Below, one piece after another: positions 1,712 to 23,141 of a DNA stretch of 64,000 bases. Each line of letters starts with the position of its first letter. Within the stretch, counting starts at the first letter, position 1. The stretch comes from Candidatus Cloacimonadota bacterium (GTDB lineage: Bacteria; Cloacimonadota; Cloacimonadia; G963667145), in assembly GCA_963667255.1 (NCBI GenBank), contig OY762940.1, forward strand, positions 1,344,001-1,408,000, given 5' to 3'. The notes under the pieces were generated by a model, which had not been told where the DNA came from, ran no database searches, and saw only the letters and a program-made list of their open reading frames with translations. The position numbers and the translations under genes are program-made.

Positions 1712-1740
1712 AAAAAAAGCAGGGTCTTTTCAGACCCTGC
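1712..1740 (-). terminator. Intrinsic terminator after the catabolic cluster
   Basis: 9-bp stem GCAGGGTCT/AGACCCTGC followed by a T7 tract on the minus strand. Confidence 0.85.
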
Positions 1741-1768: not shown

Positions 1769-2500
1769 TTAGTTTCTTGCAAATCCAAGGATTTGAGGAT
1801 ATTCTCTAGGTATTTTCAAAGGACGAGTAGCAGCCAATTCTTCAGCAGTAGGAGTTCCATCATTTTTGCACAAATCAGCTTTTTTCTCTTCCCAAATCTC
1901 TTTTGTCAAAGAGAAGGTTGGTGAACCACCAAGTTCGTGAACAAGACCTTTACCGTTATTGTATTCGTCAGTTTTGTCCATCAAACCATACTCACCCATC
2001 CATCTGCGGAATCCATTAATAGACTCAGCAACGATAAGAACCTCTTTTTCGCCCAAATAGTCAAGGTGATGCTCCATTTTAGCAGCAAGCATATTAGCAC
2101 CAGCTCTGCAACCTCTTTTGATAGCAAGAGTGTGAAGGCTCATACCAGTATCTTTGTCTTTGTGACGAGAAGTTACGATACCAGCGATTTCGCCATCAAC
2201 AGTACCAACAAGCACGAAACAGTCAGTAATTCTTTGACGATACCAACCCAAAATTTCACTATAAACTCTGCAAGCTACGATATCATACCAGTCATCTGGA
2301 ACGAACATCAAAGGCTTAACAGCTTCCAACAATTGATTGATATCAGAGAAATCACATTCTCTGATTACCAATGTTTTCCCGTTTTTAAGATTAATTTTTT
2401 TTGGAGGGTATGGCACCATCTCCGGTGATTTTGGTGAATTCAATAACTTTTCGAGTTCTTCGTTAGAAGGAATGCTATTTTTATCAACTCTTTTTCCCAT
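1769..2500 (-). CDS. Putative GNAT-fold acyltransferase of unknown substrate
   Basis: GNAT-like pattern VLVGTVDGEIAGIV...SLHTLAIKRGCRAGANML; last gene of the cluster. Confidence 0.55.
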   Translation of the reverse strand: MGKRVDKNSIPSNEELEKLLNSPKSPEMVPYPPKKINLKNGKTLVIRECDFSDINQLLEAVKPLMFVPDDWYDIVACRVYSEILGWYRQRITDCFVLVGTVDGEIAGIVTSRHKDKDTGMSLHTLAIKRGCRAGANMLAAKMEHHLDYLGEKEVLIVAESINGFRRWMGEYGLMDKTDEYNNGKGLVHELGGSPTFSLTKEIWEEKKADLCKNDGTPTAEELAATRPLKIPREYPQILGFARN

Positions 2501-2563
2501 TTTGTAAATCTCCTTACGATTTTCTTTCTTTTTTTTTTAAGTAATTTGCACTACTCAAACTTC

Positions 2564-3382
2564 TTATTTAGGCTCCAAAGCAATGATACGACACATAGAA
2601 GATTCCATCTCTATACCACGAAGAGGGAACAATCCAAGCCATACTCTCTTGCTACCAAGAGCGTTCAACTCGCCACCAAGATTTTCAGCATGAACAAGAC
2701 CTTTTGGGAACAAGTTCAAGTGCATTACTTGATAATATTCATCCATTGGATACAACTCATCAAAGCTCTTGCCATATTTTGCCTTCATCAACTCATCAGT
2801 TTTGATGAAGTCTTTTGGATGCCAAGTTCTAATAATAGTGTTCATTGGGTGATCGGCAGAACCTGCATCAATTCCAATCCATTTGATTTTTTTCTTGATT
2901 GCCCATTTGTGGAACTCTGGAGAAGGACCGGGGTGACGCACGAAATATCTCAATTCATCAGCTCCTGGTTGATCCCAACCATAGCGGTTGTAACCGGTGT
3001 TGATTACAAGAATATCGCCTTCTTTAACCTCAACCTCTTCCTCTATCATTTCTGGGGTGTAAAAATCATAGTCTTGAACTTTCTTAGAAATATCAGCAAC
3101 AGCTGCATCTCCTACCCAAAAATCCATCGGAGTGTCACCTATAGTGCGACCGGCAGCGAAGAAGTGAACTTCACCATCGATGTGAGTCCCAACATGGTTG
3201 GAAGTGTGAACTATTTGACCATTAGCACCTTGTCCCATATGGGCTCCAGCTATTCTCTTAAAATATTGCAACCCAAGAGGCATATAACTTGGCCATGGTG
3301 GTGTGTGAATAGACAATCTCATTGTTAAATCATACATTTTGATATCTTTGGACATCATATCCATAAATTCTTTATTTGTCAT
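2564..3382 (-). CDS. Cyclase-family metal-dependent amidohydrolase (kynurenine formamidase/isatin hydrolase-like)
   Basis: HVGTHIDGEVH (HxGTHxDxxxH motif), GDILVINTG, IGID and ENL motifs. Confidence 0.85.
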   Translation of the reverse strand: MTNKEFMDMMSKDIKMYDLTMRLSIHTPPWPSYMPLGLQYFKRIAGAHMGQGANGQIVHTSNHVGTHIDGEVHFFAAGRTIGDTPMDFWVGDAAVADISKKVQDYDFYTPEMIEEEVEVKEGDILVINTGYNRYGWDQPGADELRYFVRHPGPSPEFHKWAIKKKIKWIGIDAGSADHPMNTIIRTWHPKDFIKTDELMKAKYGKSFDELYPMDEYYQVMHLNLFPKGLVHAENLGGELNALGSKRVWLGLFPLRGIEMESSMCRIIALEPK

Positions 3383-3408
3383 GATTTATCTCCTTTTTTT
3401 ATTAATAT

Positions 3409-4836
3409 TTATTTAGAATATTTTTTAGCAAATGCTTCCAAAGCATCCGTAAAACATTTCATTGGTGGTTCTACCAAACCGGCACCTACCATTCCTACAC
3501 CAGGAGTTTTGTGAGCGATACCTGTATTGATAGCAGGTAAAATTCCTGTTTCAATAATTTTGATTAAGTTGATACCTGTCGGTGTGCCACGGAAGTCCAA
3601 AATAGGAATTTGGAACACACTATTTTCACCATCAGTAATTTCATACATTCTCTTGGTGAATGTAAGAGCGTCATCAGGAGAACCTCCCACAAACTTAACA
3701 ATAGCAGGAGCGGCAGCCATAGCAAATCCACCAAATCCCGCAGTCTCGGTAATGGTAGAGTCACCAATATCACGAGCAGCATCATCTTCGGTGTATCCTG
3801 GCAAATAAAGCCCTTCAACGATAGGAGCTTGGTCAATAAACCATTGGTCGCCGAGACCAGAAACTCTGATACCAAAATCCGTGCCATTTCTCGCCATCAC
3901 AGTCACGATGGTAGAGCCTTCTATATTAGCAGCTGAATCGATAATCGCTTTGGCAGTAGGCATAGACAAGTTAAGGAAGAAGTGGTCATTTTCGTTAAGG
4001 AAATCAAAAACAGAAGCAATGTCTTTCTTGCTAAATTCTTCCAATTTAACCAAAGAACTGGCAAGCTCTCTAATAACGATAGAAGTCCCTGCACGGTTAC
4101 GGTTGTGAGCTTCATCGCCCATTTGCAACACTTGGGCAATGATATTTTTCATATCAAAAGGTCCATGAGCTTTCAGAGCAGCCTTCAAGACAGGAGCCAA
4201 AACATCACGCATCCAAGTCAAGCGATTGTTGACCTCCTCGCCATAAGCACCATAACGAAGCACTTTACCCAAACCTTCGTTCAGAGTAGCGTAAGCAACA
4301 TTACCAAAAGTCTCGTTCTTTATTATCCAAACAGGCATACTTGGAGTTACGATACCAGCCATAGGACCAACAGTGCTATGATGGTGACAAGGAGAAAATT
4401 CTATTGCACCAGAAGCAGCCAATTTTTCAGCCTCTTCCGGAGTAGAAGCCCAACCTTCAAAAATGATACCACCAATAACAGCACCACGAGTAGGACCACT
4501 CATTCTATCCCAAGTCACAGGAGGACCTGAATGCAAGAACATCTTCTCTTTCATTCCAGGAATATCTTTGAGTGCAACGCCAATATCCATAAGGACTGGC
4601 TTAGACTCCATAATATTTTTGATAGCCTTAGCATTAGCAGCAGCAACATCTACGCTACTCGCTTCTATAGCATCCAAAAGAGCAACAAGTTTTGGGTCGC
4701 CACCGGCAGGCGGTTTCCAAGCAATTTGAATAGCTTTTGTATCTTGCTCTCTCAAATTATCTGCAAAACTCTCAAGACCCATATTAGCAGCAACTAAATC
4801 TTGAGTAAACAATTTATTTATAGCTTTAACATCCAT
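3409..4836 (-). CDS. DUF1116 protein, YahG/YlbE(AllG)-like
   Basis: LHSGPP, PCHHHSTVGPMAG, LNEGLGKVLRYG, MGDEAHNRN, DIGDSTITE and INTGIAH; N-terminal WKPPAGG extension. Confidence 0.85.
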   Translation of the reverse strand: MDVKAINKLFTQDLVAANMGLESFADNLREQDTKAIQIAWKPPAGGDPKLVALLDAIEASSVDVAAANAKAIKNIMESKPVLMDIGVALKDIPGMKEKMFLHSGPPVTWDRMSGPTRGAVIGGIIFEGWASTPEEAEKLAASGAIEFSPCHHHSTVGPMAGIVTPSMPVWIIKNETFGNVAYATLNEGLGKVLRYGAYGEEVNNRLTWMRDVLAPVLKAALKAHGPFDMKNIIAQVLQMGDEAHNRNRAGTSIVIRELASSLVKLEEFSKKDIASVFDFLNENDHFFLNLSMPTAKAIIDSAANIEGSTIVTVMARNGTDFGIRVSGLGDQWFIDQAPIVEGLYLPGYTEDDAARDIGDSTITETAGFGGFAMAAAPAIVKFVGGSPDDALTFTKRMYEITDGENSVFQIPILDFRGTPTGINLIKIIETGILPAINTGIAHKTPGVGMVGAGLVEPPMKCFTDALEAFAKKYSK

Positions 4837-4837
4837 C

Positions 4838-6391
4838 TTATTTACCTACCTTTTCCATAATCTTAAGAGCCAACATAGAAGCCTGATAGTTAGAAGGCAT
4901 CACTACAACACCGATAGATTCCAATTTTCTCTTTTGGTCAGCAAAACCTTGATAATCTCCCTCGGTGCCTGTAATAGAAGCTACGATTGACAAATAACCA
5001 CCATTCTTTTCAGCATTATCCTTAGCCACTTTCAAACTATCCAAAATAGCTCCGGCAGGGTCAACATGTGAACCATAGCCAATCACAACATCCATCAACA
5101 TCAAAGCTATTTCTTTGTCTTTAGCTTCCAAAAGAATCCTATCATCTCTAGTCCCCGGCTCAATCATCGGATGAGGACGACCATTAGTGAAAACATCCTC
5201 TCCCAAATCCACAATTGTGTGTCTTGTAGATTTAAAAGGATCTTTCAAAATGAAATTTTTGTCAACATGGTCGAAAGAGTAAACTCCACCAAGACTGTCA
5301 TTAAGAAGAATCATAGCCTCATCAGCAAGCGTGCCACCAGTGTATAAACCTCTCAAATACTTTTGATGACTTGCAATTTTAGCAGTCTCTTTAGCAACTA
5401 TTGCGTCAACTTCACTGTCTGGAATGGTAAACAAAGTTCTTTCAAATTTTTTGTTATTCGCAAGAGCAACAGCCATCTTGGCAGCCTCTTCCAAATTTTG
5501 AGCAAAATGAACATTCTTAGTATCTTTGCCATCAAGACCAATAAAGTGAACAACACCAGGCTTTCCTGAATTTTCCAAAGCATCAATAACTTTTTTGGCA
5601 ACAGACTCTACAGGAGGCTTAGAAACGATAGTGATAACTTTAGTTTCAGGGTCGTTTTTGAGAGCTTCGATACCCATCAACATCATCGTTCCACCAATTT
5701 CTTCACTCTTCAAATCTCTACCACCAGTACCAATTCCTTGAGAAACACCAGAACCGAATTTTTCGATACTACAAGTAATCTCTTGCAAACCTGTTCCAGA
5801 AGCACCTACAACGCCGATAGGTCCTTTTTTCACTACATTGGCAAAGCACAACGGTTTACCATTAATGATAGCAGTTCCACAGTCAGGCCCCATCATCAAC
5901 AAGCCTTTTTCTTTAGCCAATTTCTTCAGAGAAATCTCTTGCTCAAGAGGAATGTTGTCAGAGAAAAGCATCACATGTCTGCCGTTATTAAGGGCTTTAC
6001 GCACTTGAGAAGGTGCAAAAGCACCCGGCAAAGAAATCACAACCATATTAATATCGGAATAGGTATTGATTGCAGCTTCCAATGTAGCAGGTTTATAGGT
6101 TTCCCCTTCTTGAGCCGAACCTTTCTCGTTCAGCTTTTTCTTGGCTATTTCCATAGCTTCAGCCAAGATAGCTTCGTCATCAGATTCGATAGCAATGATT
6201 AAATCGTTGGGCGTAGCACTTTTAACATCATCGTTAACCATTTTCAAATCGTTCAGCAAATCCAAGTTCATAGGTGTGCCCATAGCCACCACAGCCTCGG
6301 AAATGCCATCGATTTTTTTGACTTCACGATTGATAAGCATCAACACAACAGAATCAAAATACGAATCTTTTTCTACATAGATTTCTTTCAT
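4838..6391 (-). CDS. fdrA: FdrA/YahF(AllF)-like acyl-CoA synthetase-family protein
   Basis: YFDSVVLM, MLFSDNI, LMMGPDCGT, ASGTGLQE, GTGGRDL, GLYTGGTL and GRPHPMI. Confidence 0.9.
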   Translation of the reverse strand: MKEIYVEKDSYFDSVVLMLINREVKKIDGISEAVVAMGTPMNLDLLNDLKMVNDDVKSATPNDLIIAIESDDEAILAEAMEIAKKKLNEKGSAQEGETYKPATLEAAINTYSDINMVVISLPGAFAPSQVRKALNNGRHVMLFSDNIPLEQEISLKKLAKEKGLLMMGPDCGTAIINGKPLCFANVVKKGPIGVVGASGTGLQEITCSIEKFGSGVSQGIGTGGRDLKSEEIGGTMMLMGIEALKNDPETKVITIVSKPPVESVAKKVIDALENSGKPGVVHFIGLDGKDTKNVHFAQNLEEAAKMAVALANNKKFERTLFTIPDSEVDAIVAKETAKIASHQKYLRGLYTGGTLADEAMILLNDSLGGVYSFDHVDKNFILKDPFKSTRHTIVDLGEDVFTNGRPHPMIEPGTRDDRILLEAKDKEIALMLMDVVIGYGSHVDPAGAILDSLKVAKDNAEKNGGYLSIVASITGTEGDYQGFADQKRKLESIGVVVMPSNYQASMLALKIMEKVGK

Positions 6392-7182
6392 CGTCTTTTC
6401 CTTTCATTATATTTTTTTAAAACCCAACAGAACCCACTAACAAAATCAGTTCCTGAAGTGGACCCAAAATTAAATATCTTATTGTCTAAACGCCCCTTAC
6501 CAACACCACAAACAAAATCCCTAAAAGCGAGCGGATACTCCTTTTGCAAAGCACCCAAAAGAAGACTCCTACCACCCAAACTCGTTCTCTGCAAATCCAA
6601 ACAAGAAACCAAATCCTCAAACTCATCTTCCCTACCCAACGCATCAAGTCCCAAAAGCACTCCGCACACAAAATCGTCCCCACTCGGAGTAAACCCTATC
6701 CCTAATCCAACCAGTCCAGCACAATTCCCCAAATTTTCATCTCCCAACACCCTCAAAGCCTTGTCACTCCACACAGAAGAAACAGTCCTATCTACAACTC
6801 CCAATAAACCTTCAGGTTTACCATAGACACTTATAAACTCTATTAATTTGCGAACATCAAAACTAAATTCGGTTTCGGTTTCACTTGCACCCCGAAGAGA
6901 CATATCAACCGTCTCTCTCTGCAACTCAATCTCCACCAACTCCCCTATTTTCACCTTATCTTGTTGAAAATAAACCAGTTGGTTTTTCAAATCAACCTTA
7001 CTATCAAATAAAGTTTTAACTAAAAGCGAATAAGGGGAAAGCAAATTTTCGTCTCGGAGCAATGTATAATACTGATTATCTACCAGTATATTTATCGCCT
7101 TACCAAAGATGGTATGCACACTGCCAACCATCTCCTCCCGAGCAAAAAGCCTTCCTCTTATTTCGCCTTTAAGTCTAGTCAA
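6388..7182 (-). CDS. DUF2877 protein, YahE/YlbF(AllH)-like
   Basis: LVGLGIGFTPSGDDFVCG and FGSTSGTD motifs; overlaps the fdrA start. Confidence 0.8.
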   Translation of the reverse strand: MTRLKGEIRGRLFAREEMVGSVHTIFGKAINILVDNQYYTLLRDENLLSPYSLLVKTLFDSKVDLKNQLVYFQQDKVKIGELVEIELQRETVDMSLRGASETETEFSFDVRKLIEFISVYGKPEGLLGVVDRTVSSVWSDKALRVLGDENLGNCAGLVGLGIGFTPSGDDFVCGVLLGLDALGREDEFEDLVSCLDLQRTSLGGRSLLLGALQKEYPLAFRDFVCGVGKGRLDNKIFNFGSTSGTDFVSGFCWVLKKYNERKRR

Positions 7183-7192
7183 TTAAAAATTA

Positions 7193-8410
7193 CTAATCAC
7201 CAAGCTTTTTGATAGGTTCTTTAGTGGTAATCAAGAAAATAGCATTCAAAAGAATACCAACCAAAGCTCCCAAACCAAGACCTTGGAAAGTAACACTACC
7301 TACACAAATACTAGCTCCCCCAAGACCAATAACCAAAATAGTAGCTGCGGTCATCAAAGGTCTAGGATCTGCAAAGTCAATTTTAGCTTGAACCATATTG
7401 CTGATGCCGATAGAAGAAATCATACCAAAAAGCAAGATAGAAATACCACCGATAACAGGACCTGGAATTGTGCTAATAATAGAGGTAAACTTAGGAATAA
7501 AAGCAAGCAAAATAGCAAAACAAGCAGCAATTCTCATGATAACAGGATTTCTTGCTCCTGTAAGAGCAACAGCACCGGTATTCTCAGAATATGTAGTGTT
7601 AGCAGGACCACCGAAAAAGGCAGACAAACTGGTTGCAAGCCCATCACCAAGAGCAGTTCTGTGAACACCAGGTTCTTTGATGAAATCTTTTCCAACAACA
7701 TTACCAATAGCAAGGACATCACCAAAGTGTTCAACAAGTGTAACGATAGCGATAGGAATGATAATAGCAGCACTACGACCTGAGAAAGTAGCCATGGTAA
7801 ATTTAGGAATACCAAACCAAGCAGCATCATTGATAGCAGTATAATCCACCAAACCGAAGATCATACTAACAACATATCCACAAATCAAAGCAGTAAGAAC
7901 TGGCAGCATGGAAAGCAATTTGTTTCTCTTTTCAAAGAAAATTTTGACAAAAGCTGCAACAGCAAAAGTGAACAAAGCCAAAGGCCAATTAGCTTGAGCA
8001 CTACCAATAGCTACAGGAGCCAAAAGAAGACCAATCAAAATAATAACCGGTCCGGTAACATGAGGAGGAAGAATCTTATGAAGATTTTCATGACCAACTA
8101 TCTTAAAGATAATAGCAGCCAAAACATACACAAGACCAGCTAATACGATACCTCCGCATGCCTCTGATAAAGTACCACCTTCCATTTTAACAACTGCAAA
8201 TATTCCCGGCATGAAAGCAAACGAACTTCCCAAAAATACGGGAACCTCAAACTTGGTTAAAATGTGAAATAACCAAGTACCAATACCTGCCATAAACAAG
8301 GTTACACCAACATCCAATCCGGTAAGGATTGGCACAAGCACAGTAGCACCAAACATCACGAATGTGTGTTGCAAACCAAGAATAACAGTTTTTCCATCAA
8401 CTTTTTGCAT
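7193..8410 (-). CDS. NCS2 nucleobase permease, UraA/PyrP-like
   Basis: LGLQHTFVMFGATVLVP, FLGSSFAF, EHFGD and the PANTTYSENTG NAT signature; hydrophobic throughout. Confidence 0.9.
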   Translation of the reverse strand: MQKVDGKTVILGLQHTFVMFGATVLVPILTGLDVGVTLFMAGIGTWLFHILTKFEVPVFLGSSFAFMPGIFAVVKMEGGTLSEACGGIVLAGLVYVLAAIIFKIVGHENLHKILPPHVTGPVIILIGLLLAPVAIGSAQANWPLALFTFAVAAFVKIFFEKRNKLLSMLPVLTALICGYVVSMIFGLVDYTAINDAAWFGIPKFTMATFSGRSAAIIIPIAIVTLVEHFGDVLAIGNVVGKDFIKEPGVHRTALGDGLATSLSAFFGGPANTTYSENTGAVALTGARNPVIMRIAACFAILLAFIPKFTSIISTIPGPVIGGISILLFGMISSIGISNMVQAKIDFADPRPLMTAATILVIGLGGASICVGSVTFQGLGLGALVGILLNAIFLITTKEPIKKLGD

Positions 8411-8434
8411 AATTTCTCCTTTTTTTGTGAGTTT

Positions 8435-10822
8435 TTATTTTTTTGTTACATAGTCAGCAATGTTGAATTTATCTTTTTCAGCAATTGCTTCCCAAACATT
8501 TTCAGCTTTTATAGGCAAATTAAGAAGTTCTATCCCCAAAGCATCTTTGAGTGCATTACCTATACCGGCAGCAACAGACACCATAGGTGGCTCTCCAATA
8601 CCTCTGGCACCATAAGGACCATCAAGTTGCGGAGTCTCTATCGGATAAAATTCCATCTCAAGAGGCATATCTTTGGAAGTAGGGATTTTGTTATCGGTGA
8701 AGTTAGGGTTCATCAAAACGCCTTTATCATTGTAGATGTAGCCTTCGCAAACACCTGTTCCCATTCCTTGGATAACAGCACCAAAAGTTTGACCTTTAGC
8801 ACAACCAAGATTGATAACCTTGCCCAAATCCATAGCAGTGGCAATCTTGCGGATAGTATATTCGCCTGATTCTGGGTCAGCTTCCACTATCACACCGTGA
8901 ACACCCATAGTCCAATCCAAAGCAGGATAGCCTTGTCCGGTAGTTTTTTCCAAGTTAGTAAGACCTTGAGCAATGTAGCTTCCCACACCAAACAAAGGAC
9001 CACCAATACCGTTTCCGTTAGGATAAGCATATCCAACAGACAGTTGTGCGAAAGTAACGAAAGATTTAGTGTGGTGTTTGATAAAAATTTTGCCGTCTTG
9101 GTGATCCAAGTCAACAACATCACATCTCAACACTTCAGCAGCAACCTTGTAAGCTTTAGCCAACAAATCATCAGCAGCTTTGATAGAAGCATTTCCACTC
9201 ATGAACAAACCTTTGGAAGCCACTGTTTGCCAATCGTATGGGTCGTGCTCAGTATCACAATAAAGTGTAACATTTACATCTTCATAAGGAATGCGAAGTC
9301 TCTCGGCAATCATTCCAGCCATAGCAGTGTAAGCACCTTGACCTATCTCGGTAAGAGTAAGGTTAGCGTTAACCGTTCCGTCTTCGTTCATTCTGATAGT
9401 AGTAGTAGAGCCAGTAAACGCAGGCATAGCAGGAGCTTTTTTGAATGTCACCATAGCTTTACCAATTTTCAAGCCTTTAGCCTCAGCAGCTTTTTCTTCA
9501 GCACTCAACTTACCATAACCGATAGCTTCCTTAACTGTCTCCATACATTTGCGGACATCACCAGAGTTAGCAGTAATCTCTTCGCCTGTAATAGTAGTAG
9601 AACCGGGTTTATACATATTCACTTTACGGAATTCATACGGGTCCATTTTCAATGCTTGTGCACATAAGTCCATATGCCTCTCAAGACCCCACGAAAACTC
9701 AACATGACCAAATCCTCTATAGGCTGTAGAATATGGCAAGTTGGTATAAACAGTGTAACCATCAAGCCAAGCATCAGGAATATGATAAGGACCGTTAGCT
9801 GAATAACCAGTCGCTCTAGTCACATTCACAGCATAATCGGCATAAGCTCCGGCATCCCAATAGAGAGTCATTTTTTGACCTAAAATCCTACCGTCCTTAG
9901 CAAGACCAGTTTTGATGTTATAAGTAAGACCAGTTCTTCTTGGCAACATATAAAACTCTTCTTCACGAGAAGCAACAAACTTAACAGGACGACCACCAGC
10001 TTTCTTGGAAAGGCAAGCCACGAGAGGCTCAATACCAACGCCAGCTTTACCACCAAATCCACCACCAACATTAGGAATGGTAACTTTGATTTTTGAATGA
10101 GGCAAATTAAAAGAGTTAGCCATCAAATTCCTAACAGTGAAAGCAGATTGAGCGGAAGACCAAATCTGAATATTGTCGTTGGTTTTCCATTGAACGATAG
10201 CAGCGTGAGTTTCCATCGGCACATGTTGCACTGCAGGATTAGTATATTCTCGTTCTACTATCAAGTCGGAATTTGCAAAAGCCTTGTCAACATCACCCTT
10301 TCTTGTTTTGGTGTGATTTGCGATATTAGTTCCCGGTTGAGGAGTAAAGCAAGGCTCAAAATAATCGTATTTGCCCAAATCAGGATGGATAACAGGAGCA
10401 TCTTTTTTGAGAGCGTCTTTAACATTCAGGACAGGTGTCAACTCTTTGTATTCAACTTCGATAAGGTCAATAGCTTTTTGAGCAGTCTTCAAATCATCCG
10501 CAGCTACAGCTGCTACAGCCTCGCCATAGTGTCTAACAAAATCTTTGGCAATAACATCTTTATCTACCAAGTAGAGACCAATTTTGTAACTCAGCTCTTT
10601 ACCGGTCAAAATGCCTCTTACTCCAGGCAAAGCCTCAGCTTTGCTCGTGTCTATTTTCAAAATCTTTGCACTTGCATAAGGACTAACTTTTACCAAGCCA
10701 TGAAGCATACCCGGAACTACCATATCGGTAACATAAAGAGCCTCGCCAGAAATCTTGGCAACGGTGTCTTTACGCGGGATATTTTTACCTACATACTTGA
10801 GATTTTTATCATTTTCGTACAT
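8435..10822 (-). CDS. Xanthine dehydrogenase-family molybdopterin-binding subunit
   Basis: QHVPMETH, VGGGFGGK, TAYRGFG, EIGQG and GPYGARGIGEPP. Confidence 0.9.
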   Translation of the reverse strand: MYENDKNLKYVGKNIPRKDTVAKISGEALYVTDMVVPGMLHGLVKVSPYASAKILKIDTSKAEALPGVRGILTGKELSYKIGLYLVDKDVIAKDFVRHYGEAVAAVAADDLKTAQKAIDLIEVEYKELTPVLNVKDALKKDAPVIHPDLGKYDYFEPCFTPQPGTNIANHTKTRKGDVDKAFANSDLIVEREYTNPAVQHVPMETHAAIVQWKTNDNIQIWSSAQSAFTVRNLMANSFNLPHSKIKVTIPNVGGGFGGKAGVGIEPLVACLSKKAGGRPVKFVASREEEFYMLPRRTGLTYNIKTGLAKDGRILGQKMTLYWDAGAYADYAVNVTRATGYSANGPYHIPDAWLDGYTVYTNLPYSTAYRGFGHVEFSWGLERHMDLCAQALKMDPYEFRKVNMYKPGSTTITGEEITANSGDVRKCMETVKEAIGYGKLSAEEKAAEAKGLKIGKAMVTFKKAPAMPAFTGSTTTIRMNEDGTVNANLTLTEIGQGAYTAMAGMIAERLRIPYEDVNVTLYCDTEHDPYDWQTVASKGLFMSGNASIKAADDLLAKAYKVAAEVLRCDVVDLDHQDGKIFIKHHTKSFVTFAQLSVGYAYPNGNGIGGPLFGVGSYIAQGLTNLEKTTGQGYPALDWTMGVHGVIVEADPESGEYTIRKIATAMDLGKVINLGCAKGQTFGAVIQGMGTGVCEGYIYNDKGVLMNPNFTDNKIPTSKDMPLEMEFYPIETPQLDGPYGARGIGEPPMVSVAAGIGNALKDALGIELLNLPIKAENVWEAIAEKDKFNIADYVTKK

Positions 10823-10841
10823 AACAATATTCTCCCTTTTC

Positions 10842-11309
10842 CTATTTATCCAACTGTCCAGTTACATCCAAAACAGCGTCTATAATTTGACTATATCCGG
10901 TACAACGACAGAAGTTTCCTTCAATTTGTTCCTTAATTTGGTCAACAGACGGCTTTGAATTACGAAGCAAAAGCTCTTTTACAGACATTATCATTCCGGC
11001 TGTGCAATATCCACATTGAACAGCTTGATGCTTTTGGAAAGCCTTTTGCAACTCAGACAATTCCCCGTTTTTAGACTCATTTTCCAAAGTAATAATCTCA
11101 GCACCATCAGCCTCAGCAGCGAAAACAAGACATGCATTAACAACTCTGCCATTCATAAAAATAGTGCAAGCTCCGCACTCCCCAGCACCACAACCCTCTT
11201 TGGCAGCAGTAAACCCAAGATCTTCTCTCAAAAAGTGCAATAGAATGCGACTATCGGCTACATCTTTGGTATATAAATCACCATTAATTTTTACAGAAAT
11301 AGTTTTCAT
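10842..11309 (-). CDS. XDH-family 2x[2Fe-2S] subunit
   Basis: KEGCGAGECGACT, QCGYCTAG and GNFCRCTGY. Confidence 0.92.
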   Translation of the reverse strand: MKTISVKINGDLYTKDVADSRILLHFLREDLGFTAAKEGCGAGECGACTIFMNGRVVNACLVFAAEADGAEIITLENESKNGELSELQKAFQKHQAVQCGYCTAGMIMSVKELLLRNSKPSVDQIKEQIEGNFCRCTGYSQIIDAVLDVTGQLDK

Positions 11310-12118
11310 TATGCAATCTCCTTCATAATATCTTTAGCATATTTCTTAGCCATAAACATCCTATACTCTTTGCTACAACGAACATCATCAATAGGAGATA
11401 TTTTACTTGAGATTTCATCCAACACCTTATCAGCCTTGGTATCAGCAGAATATTTGCCAACCAACACGGGTGTCGGAGCAGCAGCATTCACTGACACAGC
11501 AAGGAAATCTTTACCTTTGGCAATAGCCACACCAAGCAAAGACAAGTCGTGTCCTTTAATTCTGGTAAGTTTCTTATAATCGCCTTTAGCATTTGCACTG
11601 CTTGCAGGCACGATAATCTCTTTAGCCCACTCATTAGGTGTAATCACGGTCTTCTTAACGCCAGTGAAAAAATCTTTCAAAGGAACAACTCTTTCGCCTT
11701 TCTTGCTAACCAATTTAATAGAGGCATCCAAAACCAAGAACACAGGAGGCAAATCACCAGATGGAGAGGCATTAACCACATTACCTATAACAGTAGCCCT
11801 GTTACGAAGTTGATGAGAAGCCAAAGCATGACACGCATTAGCCAAAATAGGATATTTCTCTTTCACAACTTTGTTTTCCAACAGCTCGTTAACGGTAGCA
11901 CCTGCACCAATAACCAACCCTTTATCAGAAAATTCAATCTTATTGCAACCGGCTATTTTTTTAAAGTCGATAACAGCAGCAGGCTTTTTGAGCCCTGCCC
12001 TCATGTTCACTATCAAATCCGTTCCACCGCCCAAAATAACTGCATCATTAATATCGGCTAAAAGATTCAAAAGTTCACTTTCTGATTTTGGGGCATAATA
12101 ATCAAAATCAAACTTCAT
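11309..12118 (-). CDS. XDH-family FAD-binding subunit
   Basis: LGGGTDL, IGAGAT, QLRNRATVIGN and PIDDVR. Confidence 0.9.
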   Translation of the reverse strand: MKFDFDYYAPKSESELLNLLADINDAVILGGGTDLIVNMRAGLKKPAAVIDFKKIAGCNKIEFSDKGLVIGAGATVNELLENKVVKEKYPILANACHALASHQLRNRATVIGNVVNASPSGDLPPVFLVLDASIKLVSKKGERVVPLKDFFTGVKKTVITPNEWAKEIIVPASSANAKGDYKKLTRIKGHDLSLLGVAIAKGKDFLAVSVNAAAPTPVLVGKYSADTKADKVLDEISSKISPIDDVRCSKEYRMFMAKKYAKDIMKEIA

Positions 12119-12149
12119 TACTAACTCCTAATTTTTAATTTAAACTCAA

Positions 12150-13694
12150 TTAAAGCGGAATATTACCATGCTTTTTAGCAGGCAACTCAGCTTTTTTGTT
12201 TGCTAATTGCTCCAAAGTTTTGATAAGATAGTGTCTTGTATCAGCAGGAAGAATAACTCCATCAATATAAGATTTGGAAGCTGCATCATAAGGATTGGCA
12301 AACATCTCTTGATATTCTGCTTCTTTCTCAGCCAAGAACGCTTTAGGATCTTCTTGATCCTTGGAAGCTCTTCTAAATAAAATTTCCACAGCTCCCTTAG
12401 AACCCATAACAGCAATCTCGGCAGAAGGCCAAGCAATCACTCTGTCGGCATAAAGATGGCGAGAATTCATCACGATATACGCTCCACCATAAGCCTTTCG
12501 CAAAATAAGTGTGATTTTGGGAACAGTAGCCTCAGAGAACGCATACATCAGCTTAGCACCATTTCTGATAATGCCATTATGCTCTTGTGTAGAGCCTGGC
12601 ATAAATCCCGGAACATCCTCAAAAACTACAAGCGGGATATTAAAGCTATCGCAGAATCTCACAAATCTAGCAGCTTTTACAGATGCGTTGATATCCAAGC
12701 AACCAGCCAAGAATGCAGGTTGGTTAGCCACGATGCCAACTGTTTTCCCATTCATACGAGCGTAACCGATAACTATATTTCTTGCGTAATCTTTGGAAAC
12801 CTCAAAAAACTCACCTTCGTCAACAATTTCAGTTATAACATCTTTGATGTCATAACCTTTATTGATGTTATCGGGGATAATATCCTCAAGACCAACATTT
12901 TCCCTATCAATTGGGTCAGTGCATTCATACTCTGGAGGATTATCCTCAAAGCTGGAAGGAATATAGCTAAGCAAATACTTGATATGGTCCAAAGTATCTT
13001 GCTCCCCTTCTCCTTTGAAATGAGCAACACCAGATTTTTGCATATGAACATCGGCTCCACCCAAATTTTCGGTAGTAATATCTTCAAAAAGGACAGTTTT
13101 TACAACTTTAGGACCTGTAATAAACATAAAAGAATTTTCGTTGTTCATGAGGACAAAGTCGGTAATAGCCGGAGAATAAACGGCTCCACCTGCACACGGA
13201 CCCAAAATCGCTGAAATCTGAGGAATTACTCCGGAAGCCATTACATTGCGAACAAAAATTTCGCCAAAACCGGCCAAAGAATCAATACCTTCTTGCACTC
13301 TGGCTCCACCAGAATCCAATAGACCTATTACCGGTGCTCCAACCTTCATAGCCTCGTCCATAACCTTACAAATTTTGTCGGCATGAACCTTAGATAAAGA
13401 CCCACCGTTTACGGTAAAATCTTGTGCAAACAAATAAACGAGACGACCATCTATTTCCCCTGAACCTGTAACAACGCTATCCCCAATAGTCTTGTCATTC
13501 TCCATTCCAAAATTGTGACAATTATGTGTCACAAACATATCCATTTCGGAAAAACTACCCTCGTCCAAAAGATAGTCTATACGCTCTCTCGCTGTCCACT
13601 TACCTTTCTCATGTTGATCATCAATTCTTTTTTGACCACCACCAAGGTGTGCTTGAGCAATTTTCTCTTGTAAAGCCTGGATTTTTTCTTTCAT
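12150..13694 (-). CDS. Acyl-CoA carboxyltransferase (methylmalonyl-CoA decarboxylase alpha / PccB-like)
   Basis: [44 protein letters not shown] and C-terminal KKHGNIPL. Confidence 0.9.
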
Positions 13695-13880
13695 TATTTT
13701 ACTCCTGAATAAATTGAATCTATTCTAAGCTCCCAACTCTCCAACCACAAGCCATATGTTTCTCAAATCCAGAAAAGAGATAACAACAAGCCTCGCTCAT
13801 TTCCAATGCCCATAGAGCAAACACCCAAACCATCTTAGCTCCACCTTTTCAGTCAATAAATTTTTAGGTTTTTTTAGAAT

Positions 13881-13906
13881 TTAATTGTTAAATTAATGAC
13901 AATTAA
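13881..13906. promoter_or_regulatory. Dyad-symmetric operator candidate (Rex-like)
   Basis: TTAATTGT-N10-ACAATTAA; the core TTGTTAA-ATTA-ATGACAA resembles Rex TTGTGAA-n4-TTCACAA. Confidence 0.4.
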
Positions 13907-13966
13907 TTTTGCTTTCTCTCCTTTTCTCAATAAAATACACACATTGTAAAAAATTGTAGAAATAAC

Positions 13967-13997
13967 AAAAGCTATCCCAAATTTTGAGATAGCTTTT
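13967..13997 (-). terminator. Intrinsic terminator
   Basis: AAAAGCTATC...GATAGCTTTT hairpin just after the Mo-subunit stop. Confidence 0.75.
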
Positions 13998-14006
13998 AGT
14001 CAAAAT

Positions 14007-16343
14007 TTACCTATTTTTCATTCCCAACAAAATCTTTTCGGGGAAAAGTGGAAGAGTTTTTATTCGCACTCCTGTTGCTTTGTAAATTGCATTGGCAATC
14101 GCTGCCATAGGTGTATCCACTCCGATTTCTCCTATGGATTTTGCTCCGTAAGGACCTGTCGGGTCGTAAGATTCGGCAAACTCAACGGTAATTTTGGGCA
14201 CTTCCTTTCTGGCTGGCAATTTGTAGTTGAAAAGATTATTGGTAATCATCTGTCCACCTGCGGAATAAACCACATCTTCGTAGCAAGCCATTCCTATTCC
14301 TTGCACCAGTCCGCCCTCGCCTTGCACTTGCACCAAAGACGGATTGATAATTCCTCCGCAATCGATAGTCGCAAAATAATCATTTATGTTATAATGACCA
14401 GTAGATTTATCTATCGTAATATCAGCAATAGCAACCATATACGGCGGAGGTGAAACCTCTGGCACAAAAGACTCGCAAACCATCAATTGCTCTTGACCAC
14501 CACACATTTTGTAGAACATATCCGAACTAAACTCTTCGATGGAAATCGAATTTTTGCCGTCAGCCGACTTGATGAATTGTCCGTCAAACTCCACATTTTT
14601 CGGCTCAATATTCCATAAAGATGCGACTTTACTTTCGATTTTCGCTTTCATAGCTTTAGCAGCTTTGATGACCGCATTGCCGGTAACATAAGTGGTTTTG
14701 GAAGCATAAGCTCCCGGGTCAAAAGGAGTTGTGTCCGTATCGGAAGAGTAAACGATTATTTTGGAAACATCAACATTCAAAACATCGGCGGCAATTTGGC
14801 TCAAAATCGTGTCCGAGCCTTGCCCGATTTCCGTAGCACCGATGAGAAGATTGAAAAATCCGTCGTCATTCAATTTGAGAACCGCCGAAGCCATATCGAT
14901 ATCTTGAATGCCCGAACCTTGCATGGCAATCGCCATTCCTTGAGCTCGCACCTTGTTATCGCCAAGGTCAATCACCTGACTTTCATCGTTCCACTTAGCA
15001 AGCTCTTTGGTCCTTTTCATGCAATAATCAAGTTTACAAGACTCAATATTCATCGCTTTGCCTTCCGTTCCTTCTCCCATCAGTTTGAACAAAGGCGAAG
15101 TTTGTCCCTCTTTTATCATATTGATTTCACGGATTTTAGCTGGAGAAACTCCGACTTTTTCCGCCAAAATATCCATCATAGATTCCAAAGCAAAATTGCC
15201 TTGCATCGCTCCATAACCGCGATAAGCTCCGCCTGGAGTTTTGTTTGTATAGACAACCTTTCCGCCAAATTTAACCGCTTTGCTTTGCCCTTCCACGATA
15301 TAAAGAGGCAAGGTTTTCCCACCGGCAAGCATAAACACGGTGAGAGCATGTTCGCCGTAAGCTCCTGTATTGGACAAAACATTCATATCTATGGCATTGA
15401 TAGAGCCGTCTTTATTCGCTCCAATTTTCACCTTAATTCGCATTTGATGTCGCGAGAATGTGGACTCAAAAACCTCTTTTCTGCTAAAATTGCAAATTGC
15501 GGATTTTCCTGTTCTGAGAGTGGTGAGGCATGCAAGCATTTCGCCGTGAATTTGTTGTTTTCCGCCATAGCCTCCGCCAACTTTGGGTTTGTGGACTCTT
15601 ATCCGAGAGCGGTCAAATCCCAAGGCTTTGGAGATAATCCGTCTGATATGATGAGGAACTTGGGTGGAACTGATGACATTGAGCCGCTCATGTCCGTCCA
15701 TATAAGTGTAGCAATTGTGGGTCTCGGCACAATAGTGAGCCTGTGCTTGAGTGTAAAAAGTGTCTTCGACAACTATCTCGCTTTTGGACATTTCCAAATC
15801 GGTATCGCCATCTTCGCAAGAGTAAGAACAAGCCAAATTGTTTTTGGGGTCAAAGCCTATGGGAAACATCTCGTGAGCTTCCGGCTCAGGGTGAATAACA
15901 CTTTTATGACCTTCTGCTTTTTCAAAATCAAGAACCGGCTCCAGCACCTCAAACTCCACTTTGATAGCTTTGATAGCCTCTTTCGCCGTTCTGGCATCTA
16001 CAGCCGCCACCGCCAACACCTCATCGCCCACATATCTAACATATTCGTCCAAGATAAATTTATCGTGAGGAGACGGCTCAGGGAAGCCTTGCCCTGCACG
16101 AGTGTAAATGGTTCTGGGGACATCGGCATCCAAATGAGTGATGATTGTTGCCACACCTTCCATCTTTTCCGCAACAGATTTATTGATAGATTTTATCCGT
16201 GCAAAAGGATGAGGCGACCTCATAATCTTGACCACCAAAGCATCGGGATCTCGCATCGCCATATCGTTGGTATAGAGAGGTTTACCTTTTATCATTCCTT
16301 CGCCGTCTTTTTTGGGAACGGCAATTCCGACAACTTTACTCAT
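14007..16343 (-). CDS. XDH-family molybdopterin-binding subunit, XdhD(YgfN)-like
   Basis: STQVPH, VGGGYGGKQ, GAYRGYG, FDPGAYAS and GPYGAKSIGE. Start reassigned to the ATG at 16343 (ATGA overlap with the upstream stop). Confidence 0.88.
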   Translation of the reverse strand: MSKVVGIAVPKKDGEGMIKGKPLYTNDMAMRDPDALVVKIMRSPHPFARIKSINKSVAEKMEGVATIITHLDADVPRTIYTRAGQGFPEPSPHDKFILDEYVRYVGDEVLAVAAVDARTAKEAIKAIKVEFEVLEPVLDFEKAEGHKSVIHPEPEAHEMFPIGFDPKNNLACSYSCEDGDTDLEMSKSEIVVEDTFYTQAQAHYCAETHNCYTYMDGHERLNVISSTQVPHHIRRIISKALGFDRSRIRVHKPKVGGGYGGKQQIHGEMLACLTTLRTGKSAICNFSRKEVFESTFSRHQMRIKVKIGANKDGSINAIDMNVLSNTGAYGEHALTVFMLAGGKTLPLYIVEGQSKAVKFGGKVVYTNKTPGGAYRGYGAMQGNFALESMMDILAEKVGVSPAKIREINMIKEGQTSPLFKLMGEGTEGKAMNIESCKLDYCMKRTKELAKWNDESQVIDLGDNKVRAQGMAIAMQGSGIQDIDMASAVLKLNDDGFFNLLIGATEIGQGSDTILSQIAADVLNVDVSKIIVYSSDTDTTPFDPGAYASKTTYVTGNAVIKAAKAMKAKIESKVASLWNIEPKNVEFDGQFIKSADGKNSISIEEFSSDMFYKMCGGQEQLMVCESFVPEVSPPPYMVAIADITIDKSTGHYNINDYFATIDCGGIINPSLVQVQGEGGLVQGIGMACYEDVVYSAGGQMITNNLFNYKLPARKEVPKITVEFAESYDPTGPYGAKSIGEIGVDTPMAAIANAIYKATGVRIKTLPLFPEKILLGMKNR

Positions 16344-16795
16344 TTCAAACCTCCCAAAAATGTTTTTATGGCTCGCATTTGGCTCATATAACCTGAACAA
16401 CGACAAACATTTCCGTTGATATAATGTCTGATTTGCTCATCGCTCAAATCCGTTCCAAGCTCTTTTATCATCGCATAAACGGTCACCGCCAAAGCAGAAT
16501 CACAATATCCGCATTGGATAGCACCCTCTTGGTTCATCGCTTTAAAAAACTCCGCCACTTCGTCTTTGATGCCCTCAACTGTGGTAATCGCTTTCCCTTG
16601 AGCACGAGCAGCCAAAAACGAACAGGAAAGAATCGGCTTGCCGTCCAACAAAACCGTGCACATAGCACAAGAAGAGGAGTCGCAACTTCTTTTCACACTG
16701 GCAATGCCGTTATTTCGCAAAACATCTAAAAGATATTCGTCTTCTTTTATGAGGTAAGATTTCGGCTCTCCATTCAAAATAAGGTCTAATTTCAT
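16340..16795 (-). CDS. XDH-family [2Fe-2S] subunit
   Basis: CDSSSCAMCT, QCGYC and GNVCRCSGY. Confidence 0.88.
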   Translation of the reverse strand: MKLDLILNGEPKSYLIKEDEYLLDVLRNNGIASVKRSCDSSSCAMCTVLLDGKPILSCSFLAARAQGKAITTVEGIKDEVAEFFKAMNQEGAIQCGYCDSALAVTVYAMIKELGTDLSDEQIRHYINGNVCRCSGYMSQMRAIKTFLGGLK

Positions 16796-18939: not shown

Positions 18940-19089
18940 TTTTTTTATCTCCATTTTAAATACAATTATAACTCACACAAAATTTCACTAATGCACAATT
19001 GCTTAATAAATTCTTAATTTTTGCAAATTTTGTAGCAAAAAATCTTCTGACAATCTAATTTTTTCTAAGAAATCGTTAAATTTTTATCC

Positions 19090-19127
19090 AAAAAAAGACG
19101 CATTCTCCACTGAGAAGAACGCGTCTT
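19090..19127 (-). terminator. Intrinsic terminator after permease
   Basis: AAGACGC-TTCT...AGAA-GCGTCTT hairpin with a T7 tract on the minus strand. Confidence 0.7.
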
Positions 19128-19141
19128 CCAGTGTATTAAAT

Positions 19142-20467: not shown

Positions 20468-20520
20468 TTCCTCCTGTTTTTTTTGTTTTTAAGCTAAGTA
20501 AGCTTAAATTTCTTCTTTAA

Positions 20521-22074: not shown

Positions 22075-22120
22075 AGTACTCCCCTTATATTTTTTTTATT
22101 TTTTAAGAATTAAAAGCTAA

Positions 22121-22975: not shown

Positions 22976-23112
22976 AATTAATCCCTCCTAAAATTTTCAA
23001 TAGTTTAATCCTGCAAATAGGATAAATTCAATCCCACATTATACAGGAATTAGTAGCAATTTAGCTACAACACAAGTGTTCTAAACACAATCTTCTTTAT
23101 AATTTTCAGATA

Positions 23113-23141
23113 GCTTGCTTCCCAATTTTTGGGAAGCAAGC
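23113..23141. terminator. Strong hairpin between etfA and hbd (terminator or mRNA stabiliser)
   Basis: 13-bp perfect stem GCTTGCTTCCCAA/TTGGGAAGCAAGC; no clear minus-strand T-tract. Confidence 0.55.

Follow-up and report, generated by a model that had tools for sequence, protein, structure and literature searches.

A conserved operon in Candidatus Cloacimonadota and a predicted anaerobic route by way of barbiturate that turns uracil or thymine into malonyl-CoA

The closest described counterpart for the opening steps considered here is the oxidative pyrimidine pathway of Rhodococcus, which comprises uracil/thymine dehydrogenase, barbiturase (EC 3.5.2.1) and ureidomalonase; this barbiturate route has so far come from aerobic actinobacteria and has been termed rare (PMC3758960). 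For the step that follows, the nearest model is a three-subunit enzyme of E. coli, AllFGH, which frees oxamate from allantoin almost 1:1 (PMC11326118). A route leading from uracil through barbiturate to malonyl-CoA was not found in the literature searched. The operon described here, which belongs to an uncultured bacterium that is itself probably an anaerobe and whose relatives are hosted by mostly uncultured lineages regarded as anaerobic, probably degrades uracil or thymine anaerobically via barbiturate to (methyl)malonyl-CoA, as judged from comparison of sequences.

Layout and conservation of the operon

The window, that is the whole stretch of 64,000 nucleotides analysed, holds ten tightly packed open reading frames on the minus strand, confirmed at 1769..13694. 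With their flanking elements they are:

13695..14006, minus strand, intergenic region of 312 bp, 5' of the carboxyltransferase gene; a hairpin at 13966-13998 ends the upstream Mo-enzyme unit
12150..13694, minus strand, acyl-CoA carboxyltransferase of MmdA/PccB type, 514 aa (PF01039, E 7e-195)
11309..12118, minus strand, Mo-hydroxylase FAD subunit, 269 aa (PF00941)
10842..11309, minus strand, Mo-hydroxylase 2Fe-2S subunit, 155 aa (PF01799, PF00111)
8435..10822, minus strand, Mo-hydroxylase large subunit, 795 aa, predicted uracil/thymine dehydrogenase (PF02738, PF20256, PF01315)
7193..8410, minus strand, NCS2 permease on the UraA/RutG side, 405 aa, predicted uracil/thymine importer (profile and structure matches)
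6388..7182, minus strand, DUF2877/AllH/YahE-like subunit, 264 aa (PF11392)
4838..6391, minus strand, FdrA/YahF-like subunit, 517 aa (NF004760, above cut-off)
3409..4836, minus strand, DUF1116/YahG-like subunit, 475 aa (PF06545)
2564..3382, minus strand, cyclase-family metal amidohydrolase, 272 aa, predicted barbiturate ring opener (PF04199)
1769..2500, minus strand, GNAT-fold protein of an unnamed family, 243 aa, predicted to turn a three-carbon amide into a CoA thioester (modelled fold)
1712..1740, minus strand, terminator-like hairpin and T run of intrinsic type after the last gene (9-pair hairpin at 1719-1740)

The sequence-only reading had described ten co-oriented genes with small gaps and one terminator, and this layout is confirmed: from carboxyltransferase to GNAT the gaps are 31, -1, 19, 24, 10, -4, 1, 26 and 63 bp, the last being the largest, and a purine-rich ribosome-binding stretch lies 5' of nine of the ten genes, the exception being the AllH-like gene. 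Its family labels are upheld for the carboxyltransferase (PF01039), the three XDH-family subunits, the NCS2 permease, the trio (PF11392, PF00549, PF06545) and the cyclase (PF04199). The 312-bp region is the likely promoter site, with promoter-like matches across it at the level of chance (42 vs 38.0 +/- 6.5). The neighbourhood survey that the same reading called for was made on two sets of 80 loci (here given L-numbers), survey 1 with the GNAT subtype of the window and survey 2 with a second subtype. Nine of the ten genes form a cluster that is co-conserved across many phyla, and the grouping is not due to chance because it recurs in unrelated ones. Where relatives carry thiolase-like and DUF35 genes, the window has its terminator-like hairpin.

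Each reaction of the proposed route is one that we infer from gene content, family membership, conservation and the swaps seen between lineages. The permease would import uracil or thymine, which the Mo enzyme would oxidise, with no need of oxygen, to (methyl)barbiturate; the cyclase would open barbiturate to ureidomalonate, and the YahEFG-like trio would convert this to malonamate and carbamoyl phosphate, the latter giving ATP through a carbamate kinase encoded elsewhere in the genome. The GNAT protein would then convert malonamate to malonyl-CoA. In most relatives, decarboxylation of malonyl-CoA would fall to a cysteine-less thiolase/DUF35 pair. In this genus malonyl-CoA would pass to the sole carboxyltransferase, working with the biotinyl domain of OadA, with either sodium-pumping decarboxylation via OadB or carboxyl transfer to pyruvate as the outcome, or else it might go straight into fatty-acid synthesis.

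Uptake, oxidation and ring opening of the pyrimidine

What is it that points to barbiturate? The cyclase itself is a clear member of PF04199 (113 bits, cut-off 23) with an HxGTHxD metal motif at residues 63-69. It was rejected as kynurenine formamidase KynB (TIGR03035, 41 bits against a cut-off of 223), and its place in PF04199 also removes it from the Toblerone-fold AtzD/Bar family; this membership makes it less credible that the protein is a barbiturase, not that it works like one. A ring-opening amidohydrolase occurs in 16 of the 80 survey-2 loci; its E-value against Rhodococcus barbiturase (5HWE) is 8e-177, compared with 8.5e-91 against the top cyanuric acid hydrolase. Of the 16, 13 carry every residue of the Bar signature given in PMC3758960 (N, H, K, V, S/A), the other three being two partial sequences and one missed at one site by the search pattern. 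Among the 21 survey-2 loci with a Mo large subunit, twelve carry the cyclase, eight the barbiturase and none both: barbiturase takes the place of the cyclase in otherwise equal clusters, and the two are mutually exclusive. With a barbiturase gene at the cyclase position in related clusters, the predicted steps become directly testable. The barbiturase loci form five groups at 90% GNAT identity, all in one clade, so the swap may have been a single event. In two cyclase-anchored YahFG clusters (L200, L203) GNAT was not seen within 20 kb. The cyclase can be put forward with good confidence as the ring opener, although as a prediction from sequence.

All three hydroxylase subunits carry the respective domains of the XDH family, and the large one has the motifs GGGFGGK (253), YRGFG (368) and ARGIGEP (739), while scoring under every named equivalog cut-off of that family (XdhA, PucD, HcrA, CoxL; best 498 vs 780 bits). 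Its phylogenetic placement, suggested earlier as a check, groups it with barbiturase-linked subunits: it shares 59-62% identity with its counterparts in barbiturase loci and joins them in one clade (support 0.97), where they nest inside the window's own clade. Two actinomycete barbiturase loci yielded one partial Mo subunit only, at 32% identity. Together with the exclusivity of cyclase and barbiturase, this placement strengthens the sequence-only claim of a pyrimidine route, and breakdown via barbiturate now appears very probable.

The permease, for which UraA and XanQ/UacT had been left as options, falls on the UraA side by profile (uracil permease 328 bits, below the cut-off of 477 though over that of the NCS2 family; xanthine permease 190) and by structure (UraA E 5e-69; UapA-type 3e-9). 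It keeps E227 and E276, but Asp231, as in xanthine-type carriers, replaces UraA His245, one of the UraA binding residues (Glu241, His245 and Glu290). The full UraA-type motif pair is found in 7 of 29 cluster permeases. The source genome (G000) lacks pyrF and has upp, and must therefore import a pyrimidine; against this argument from need, two congeners that lack the cluster (G003 and G005) retain the permease and have pyrF. Other pyrimidine genes lie near the clusters: reductive-pathway genes in the same run in L082, uridine phosphorylase in L081 and in 6 of the 80 survey-2 loci, and cytosine deaminase-like genes adjoining the cyclase in L102, L203 and L204.

From the ureide to malonyl-CoA

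The window holds the three subunits that mark the AllFGH oxamate carbamoyltransferase (FdrA, DUF1116 and DUF2877). By sequence, nonetheless, the trio is YahEFG-like and not AllFGH-like: the FdrA subunit is closer to YahF (44%, 410 bits) than to AllF (38%, 337 bits), and the DUF1116 subunit closer to YahG (434 bits) than to AllG (375), with a YahG-type N-terminal segment that E. coli has at the end of AllF, while the third subunit matches YahE (E 3.5e-11) and gives no match to E. coli AllH. An AllFGH fed with oxalurate from allantoin was rejected for this closeness and because AllC, AllD and AllE have no match in the source genome at E<1e-8. The absence of allantoate amidohydrolase and barbiturase, claimed earlier for the window, holds for the genome, in which neither AllC nor, by tblastn, barbiturase was found; nor do the ten genes include an obvious ureidomalonase. 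Carbamate kinase is encoded in the genome, unlinked to the operon, and is rare within clusters (9/80 and 1/80 loci in the two surveys). Release of carbamoyl phosphate by the trio is predicted and likely.

The GNAT protein has no Pfam or NCBIfam match, but its model (pLDDT 92) matches the GNAT fold (best Z 13.2, rmsd 3.1, 161 aligned, 14% identity); 543 homologues were found, and the family spans more than a thousand clusters. The residues that are constant across the two subtypes are kept in it, as is a variant form of the CoA pyrophosphate loop. GNAT-fold malonyl-CoA decarboxylases are known (MCD, CurA GNAT, MadA), although no decarboxylase such as MCD or CurA GNAT is among the structure matches listed. 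The thiolase/DUF35 pair follows GNAT in 79 of the 80 survey-1 loci and in none of survey 2, and is absent from the source genome and genus; its thiolase-like proteins lack the cysteine, with ENGPASG in 78 of 79. Since GNAT is paired there with a likely decarboxylase of another kind, it would have a different job. Left without a role in the sequence-only reading, it is now the most probable link from the YahEFG product to malonyl-CoA, yet this step is the least certain of the route: malonamate:CoA acyltransferase activity is a tentative prediction, rated a little below an even chance. Exchanging an amide for a thioester costs some 15-20 kJ/mol, and the following reaction would have to draw it forward. 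An observation against the route is that GNAT also accompanies a nitrilase and a monocarboxylate transporter in 4/80 loci, where YahEFG is absent. About as likely as the acyltransferase activity is the wider conjecture that YahEFG-type proteins are general acylurea phosphorylases and that the new GNAT family puts CoA in place of the malonamate amide nitrogen, pulled by the malonyl-CoA decarboxylase of each lineage, with energy saved twice in a widespread, undescribed anaerobic pathway. Candidates for that decarboxylase are a sodium pump, a fused AccD/AccA-like enzyme, the thiolase/DUF35 pair and, in this genus, the resident carboxyltransferase.

That carboxyltransferase scores 778 bits against an mmdA cut-off of 999. 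The sequence-only reading counted it with the pathway, but the genomes do not bear out a dedicated gene: it is the only copy in the source genome, occurs in 5/5 congeners (AllG in 3/5) and, among loci that share the GNAT subtype of the window, in just 1/80; its identity to homologues linked to clusters (54-58%) does not exceed that to unlinked ones (up to 63%). As a single-copy resident kept by both cluster-less congeners, it is probably shared. Carboxyltransferases lie in 20/80 survey-2 loci, six with a biotin carrier and a sodium-pump beta subunit, though these 20 are only four groups at 90% GNAT identity; 60/80 have neither decarboxylase within the sequence available, many contigs being short. 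Two other kinds of carboxyltransferase recur in relatives, MdcA is found in L062 and L164, and a malonyl-CoA-synthetase-like gene adjoins the cyclase in 3/20 cyclase-anchored loci. Among genomes with the thiolase-like gene, a carboxyltransferase match occurs in 6/7 class relatives and 7/13 survey genomes, so the two often co-occur and are not strictly complementary. A complete sodium-pumping methylmalonyl-CoA decarboxylase in the run was rejected, as only the alpha-like gene is there; the genome's only biotinyl domain is on OadA, beside OadB, ~92 kb off. Participation of the carboxyltransferase in the pathway is nevertheless favoured, if modestly.

An unlikely alternative, the best supported of the rivals, would have the carboxyltransferase as a bystander, with the cluster placed behind a housekeeping gene and its last two genes lost, so that the genus excretes malonamate or malonate, or uses malonyl-CoA solely to make fatty acids, its chief gain being carbamoyl phosphate and reducing power. 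Besides its retention without the cluster, the long branch of the window's GNAT (0.70) fits this, as do fabD and other FAS II genes in a genome without biotin carboxylase, which imply that the carboxyltransferase has its own job. On the other side stand the 31 bp, free of terminator-like sites, that separate the carboxyltransferase from the Mo subunit, the arrangement kept in four genomes of the genus, the intact invariant GNAT residues, and the carboxyltransferases placed inside the cluster by other lineages without a thiolase-like gene. Under the wider conjecture given above, uracil would also supply malonyl-CoA directly to fatty acids in this genus, in which biotin carboxylase is lacking.

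Improbable, though it keeps the pyrimidine, is a different middle: the trio makes malonamoyl-CoA and GNAT hydrolyses its amide, or GNAT attacks ureidomalonate to give malonyl-CoA and urea. The CoA-binding and CoA-ligase domains of the YahF-like subunit suit the former, as does the proposal that FdrA is an oxamate CoA ligase (PMC3364942), and the rarity of carbamate kinase would suit internal use of carbamoyl phosphate. However, E. coli AllFGH yields free oxamate, attack on the ureide would deprive YahEFG of its substrate, and the GNAT-thiolase-DUF35 units next to a nitrilase include no CoA ligase in the run.

Another N-heterocycle as substrate, for instance a triazine or some modified pyrimidine, is very improbable: AllFGH homologues do occur in biuret clusters too (PMC12625717), and the Mo subunit and cyclase fall below all named cut-offs, but the signature of the swapped-in hydrolase is that for barbiturate and not that for cyanuric acid, and the genes nearby encode enzymes acting on uracil, uridine and cytosine. 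Least probable is the purine alternative of the sequence-only reading, in which the cyclase opens parabanate and the trio is oxamate carbamoyltransferase acting on oxalurate: homology to AllFGH, the xanthine-type Asp of the permease and another Mo enzyme directly upstream are outweighed by the barbiturase that substitutes for the cyclase, the nearness to YahEFG, the malonyl-type enzymes recurring in relatives, the thiamine enzyme that oxalyl-CoA would require, and the other genes that the source genome has for purines: ygeY, a ygeW-like gene, carbamate kinase and three additional Mo large subunits.

Significance and comparison with described systems

If the route is correct, anaerobes gain ATP from uracil and thymine via barbiturate, and functions follow for four orphan groups, namely the cyclase subfamily (a second, unrelated barbiturate hydrolase), the YahEFG-like proteins (perhaps including those of E. 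coli), the unnamed GNAT family and the cysteine-less thiolase/DUF35 pair. The window, having no such pair, is a natural experiment on its role, and every step is open to assay with purified enzyme and simple substrates.

The cyclase shares PF04199 and the HxGTHxD metal motif with KynB and isatin hydrolase, to which it is distantly related (E 2e-7 to 7e-4), and we know of no member of that type that acts on barbiturate. With GNAT acyltransferases and malonyl-CoA decarboxylases the GNAT protein shares its fold and a variant CoA pyrophosphate loop, none of them being a close relative. The carboxyltransferase is of the MmdA type known from sodium pumps and transcarboxylase; it stands alone in the window, whereas complete pump sets lie inside sister clusters (L140, L141, L148, L162, L163) or face one (L117). 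With E. coli AllFGH and AllK (PMC11326118), and the paralogous YahEFG and YahI, the operon shares three homologous subunits and a predicted conversion of acylurea and phosphate to amide and carbamoyl phosphate; it differs from AllFGH in that sequence, gene order and subunit boundary are nearer the uncharacterised YahEFG, allC, allD and allE are absent from the genome, carbamate kinase is unlinked and the predicted substrate is one carbon longer. With the Rhodococcus pathway it would share the first two steps and the intermediates barbiturate and ureidomalonate, and sister clusters with an orthologous Mo subunit carry a true barbiturase. In contrast to that pathway, the window has a cyclase-family enzyme in place of the Toblerone-fold barbiturase, and the predicted cleavage of the ureide uses phosphate, giving carbamoyl phosphate and malonamate, and not water, which would give urea and malonate.

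The ten-gene run and the proposed route

The operon is real and conserved, and has apparently gone undescribed so far. An open reading frame check of the window found the ten minus-strand genes of the sequence-only reading, and upheld both their tight packing, with a widest intergenic gap of 63 bp, and the terminator that closes the run. The genome (G000) is a single 1.59-Mb contig of 98.9% completeness, and the GC content of the operon genes (0.39-0.42) is in line with the 0.39 of the genome.

Features of the operon and its borders, in window coordinates
13966-13998, hairpin ending the upstream unit, upstream of the carboxyltransferase
12150-13694, minus strand, carboxyltransferase (Pfam and NCBIfam)
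8435-12118, minus strand, Mo-hydroxylase FAD, 2Fe-2S and large subunits (Pfam and NCBIfam)
7193-8410, minus strand, NCS2 permease (Pfam and NCBIfam)
3409-7182, minus strand, DUF2877, FdrA and DUF1116 homologues (Pfam and NCBIfam)
2564-3382, minus strand, cyclase (Pfam and NCBIfam)
1769-2500, minus strand, 243-aa orphan, putative GNAT (no Pfam or NCBIfam label; structure model)
1712-1740, terminator-like hairpin with T run, after the last gene

Beyond the terminator, at 614-1621, lie rubrerythrin-like and Fur/PerR-like genes (by eye) that are unrelated to the pathway. Directly upstream, a second three-subunit enzyme of the XDH family (14007-17562) is kept in the congeners read, G003 and G005 included. 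Also in the window are a butyrate-type cluster at 17734-26157 (thiolase, permease, CoA transferase-like gene, 3-hydroxybutyryl-CoA dehydrogenase, an ETF pair recognised by eye, and acyl-CoA dehydrogenase) and, at 30107-36345, four tandem stand-alone genes resembling the Aas acyl-ACP synthetase domain, possibly for fatty-acid scavenging.

In the proposed route a pyrimidine would be imported and hydroxylated to (methyl)barbiturate, the ring of which would then be opened to give ureido(methyl)malonate. On the model of AllFGH (PMC11326118), phosphorolysis would split this product into (methyl)malonamate and carbamoyl phosphate. The carbamoyl phosphate would yield ATP through an unlinked carbamate kinase (G000 79627-80574), and the GNAT would convert the amide of (methyl)malonamate into a CoA thioester, which could end in decarboxylation, carboxyl transfer or fatty-acid synthesis. 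All of these steps we infer, with the GNAT conversion the weakest among them.

The three homologues at 3409-7182, related to both YahEFG and AllFGH of E. coli, are on their matches best described as YahEFG-like. The FdrA-like subunit scores 44% and 410 bits against YahF versus 38% and 337 bits against AllF, the DUF1116 subunit 434 bits against YahG versus 375 bits against AllG, and the DUF2877 subunit matches YahE with no match to AllH. The permease falls on the UraA side by family scores and structure match, keeping both binding glutamates and having Asp in place of His245; the second NCS2 carrier of G000 has the xanthine-type FSQN motif. A single-sequence fold model of the cyclase (pLDDT 39) was set aside. 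For the orphan, a high-confidence model (pLDDT 92) built from a 110-row alignment shows a GNAT fold without a standout relative, the structure matches reaching E 2e-6 in Foldseek and a best Z of 13.2 (rmsd 3.1, 161 aligned). Its invariant residues are Asp73, Arg78, Glu82, His123, Glu159, His188 and Glu189. A profile search of PDB sequences with the family returned zero matches, the clusters matched in the ESM Atlas either had no name or bore a weak GNAT label, and a GNAT-fold decarboxylase is absent among the fold matches listed.

Carboxyltransferase and pyrimidine supply in the genus

Is the carboxyltransferase a dedicated part of the pathway? Such a role was rejected, the gene being the sole copy in G000 and retained in congeners without the cluster: it occurs in 5/5 congeners, the YahG-like and GNAT genes in 3/5. 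In G003 and G005 the order runs from the upstream Mo enzyme through carboxyltransferase and permease to the downstream flank, with the catabolic genes absent. G000 has FAS II genes (plsX, fabD, fabG, acpP and fabF, some by eye; C1:103963-108383 and C1:1261351-1264435), biotin carboxylase gave no match in G000 or in 5/5 congeners, and the one biotinyl domain of G000 is on OadA, beside OadB. Together with the single copy and the congener retention, these features make a housekeeping role likely, in which malonyl-CoA would be formed by carboxyl transfer from oxaloacetate; the carboxyltransferase and OadA may thus supply it in an ATP-independent manner. The same enzyme could also consume uracil-derived malonyl-CoA. 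Since many genomes hold both a carboxyltransferase and the thiolase-like/DUF35 pair that follows the GNAT gene in relatives, the adjacency of carboxyltransferase and cluster here may still be chance.

With pyrF missing and upp present in G000, the permease likely serves pyrimidine salvage as well. pyrF was not found in three of the six genus genomes (G000, G001 and G002), all of which carry the catabolic cluster. An inability to make pyrimidines does not explain the retained permease of G003 and G005, since pyrF is present in both. As for purines, G000 has ygeY over the cut-off, a ygeW-like gene by motif and three more Mo large subunits, so that a separate purine route seems to exist; the upstream Mo enzyme suggests a dispersed anaerobic one when taken together with ygeY, the ygeW-like gene and the carbamate kinase gene, which lie at scattered sites.

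The proposed GNAT step and the cysteine-less partner protein

Loci anchored on the GNAT subtype of the window (survey 1) contain GNAT by construction, and gene presence was scored by tblastn. Of 277 genome loci the best 80 were taken, 47 of them with at least 9 kb of upstream sequence; within this set of 80 the thiolase-like gene occurs in 79 and DUF35 in 75, followed by cyclase (52), YahG-like (50), YahF-like (48), Mo large subunit (45), permease (31) and carbamate kinase (9), with YahF and YahG fused in about 14; a carboxyltransferase is present in one, the closest relative (L009), and barbiturase in none. The hosts of these 80 include Spirochaetota, Verrucomicrobiota, Acidobacteriota, Eisenbacteria and Caldiserica. 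Sphaerochaeta sp. PS (L057) is an example of a carrier in culture. Within the phylum of the window, GNAT is found in 11 of 232 genomes. Six of these have the thiolase-like gene next to it; the gene is missing from the 4 genomes of this genus and from the locus of G167. G000 lacks both the thiolase-like gene and DUF35. Loss of the pair for want of biotin carboxylase is not supported, as the pair is kept by five relatives from the class in which biotin carboxylase gave no match, and G167 has such a match yet no pair at the locus.

The partner protein of relatives was rejected as a true thiolase because the nucleophilic cysteine is missing: ENGPASG stands at its position in 78 of the 79 thiolase-like proteins from the best 80 of 277 loci, and both histidine motifs are kept in 72. 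By analogy with cysteine-less condensing enzymes, the protein is better read as a decarboxylase or aldolase than as a thiolase. PDB 4YZO, a solved thiolase-like structure also without a cysteine at this position, is a possible model for it.

The assignment of the amide-to-thioester conversion to the GNAT rests on parsimony, in that the cluster conserves no amidase or CoA ligase. It is further suggested by one case (L200, a cyclase-anchored locus) where YahFG stand with an amidase-family gene and GNAT was not found at the locus, and by how tightly GNAT is tied to likely decarboxylases, a link that would be required of an uphill step. Exchange of an amide for a thioester is such a step.

Two other arrangements of the GNAT were seen. 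Four loci (L010, L045, L052 and L084) begin with a nitrilase, DUF485 and a monocarboxylate symporter of ActP type and continue with GNAT, the Cys-less thiolase and DUF35, with Mo enzyme and YahEFG absent at the locus; such units may serve the use of cyanoacetate or a related nitrile. In 10 of the best 80 of 277 loci, of Verrucomicrobiota type (L037, L042, L047, L053, L055, L056, L062, L063, L064 and L067), GNAT, thiolase-like gene and DUF35 are divergent from a carbon-nitrogen hydrolase with 44% identity to one near the barbiturase of an Embleya locus (L193), and toxin-deaminase-domain genes come after many of them.

Barbiturase loci and comparison with other carriers

Loci anchored on a second GNAT subtype, that of G167 (survey 2; again with GNAT by construction), were the best 80 of at least 566 metagenome stretches, 67 with at least 500 bases of downstream sequence. 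Among these 80 the thiolase-like gene and DUF35 occur in none, a carboxyltransferase in 20 (6 of MmdA type, accompanied by a biotin carrier and the beta subunit of a sodium pump, and 14 of fused AccD/AccA type) and barbiturase in 16. The decarboxylation of (methyl)malonyl-CoA put forward by the sequence-only reading thus gains support, because lineages without the pair carry carboxyltransferases in the cluster. The barbiturase matches that of Rhodococcus (5HWE) at E 8e-177, with the Bar residues given in PMC3758960 present. Within the best 80 of at least 566, no locus has both cyclase and barbiturase: the 21 loci with a Mo subunit have cyclase in 12 and barbiturase in 8, and the 31 with YahF or YahG have them in 15 and 10. 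Grouped at 90% GNAT identity, the barbiturase loci form 5 groups in one clade and the carboxyltransferase loci 4 groups, and reflect few independent events.

The Mo subunit of the window, earlier proposed to form (methyl)barbiturate, shares 59-62% identity with its counterparts at barbiturase loci and about 40-50% with those at survey 2 cyclase loci. In a FastTree phylogeny the barbiturase-linked subunits nest within its clade (support 0.97; 54 large subunits, comprising about half of the full-length survey 1 ones and all survey 2 ones of at least 670 aa, some trimmed).

The cyclase was also found in 3/401 and 26/401 genomes of two other phyla, and 20 of 32 places were examined in a cyclase-anchored check. 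At three of the 20 (L196-L198) the cluster is complete, GNAT, DUF35 and the thiolase-like gene included. At L203, YahFG and cyclase are joined by a cytosine deaminase-like gene, with GNAT not found within 20 kb. Fused double cyclase genes occur at L199:9210-10781 and L200:9294-10967. In haloarchaea a 45% cyclase homologue adjoins a Mo enzyme in 2 of 3 regions read, one with cytosine deaminase and cytosine permease; these Mo subunits (26-28% identity) are not orthologous to that of the window. No close relative of the Mo subunit turned up in a plasmid search, where the best match reached 37%.

A literature search covering few subscription papers found none in which pyrimidine breakdown is linked to the cyclase, YahEFG, this GNAT or the thiolase-like pair; the supplements of PMC12625717, which treat allFGH contexts, may bear on novelty. 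YahFG and GNAT had no match at two barbiturase loci of actinomycetes. In Embleya (L193:7989-10101) barbiturase is immediately preceded by a carbamate kinase gene, a layout which hints that an actinomycete, too, may form carbamoyl phosphate. Ten more distant cyclases (about 40% identity; L206-L215, in the phylum of G239) mostly lie with Mo enzyme, NCS1 carrier and amidase, three with a malonyl-CoA-synthetase-like gene, and these clusters are likely a hydrolytic version of the pathway. The operon of the window is most likely an energy-conserving variant of the oxidative pyrimidine pathway, this genus most likely having a truncated form of the cluster beside a shared carboxyltransferase.
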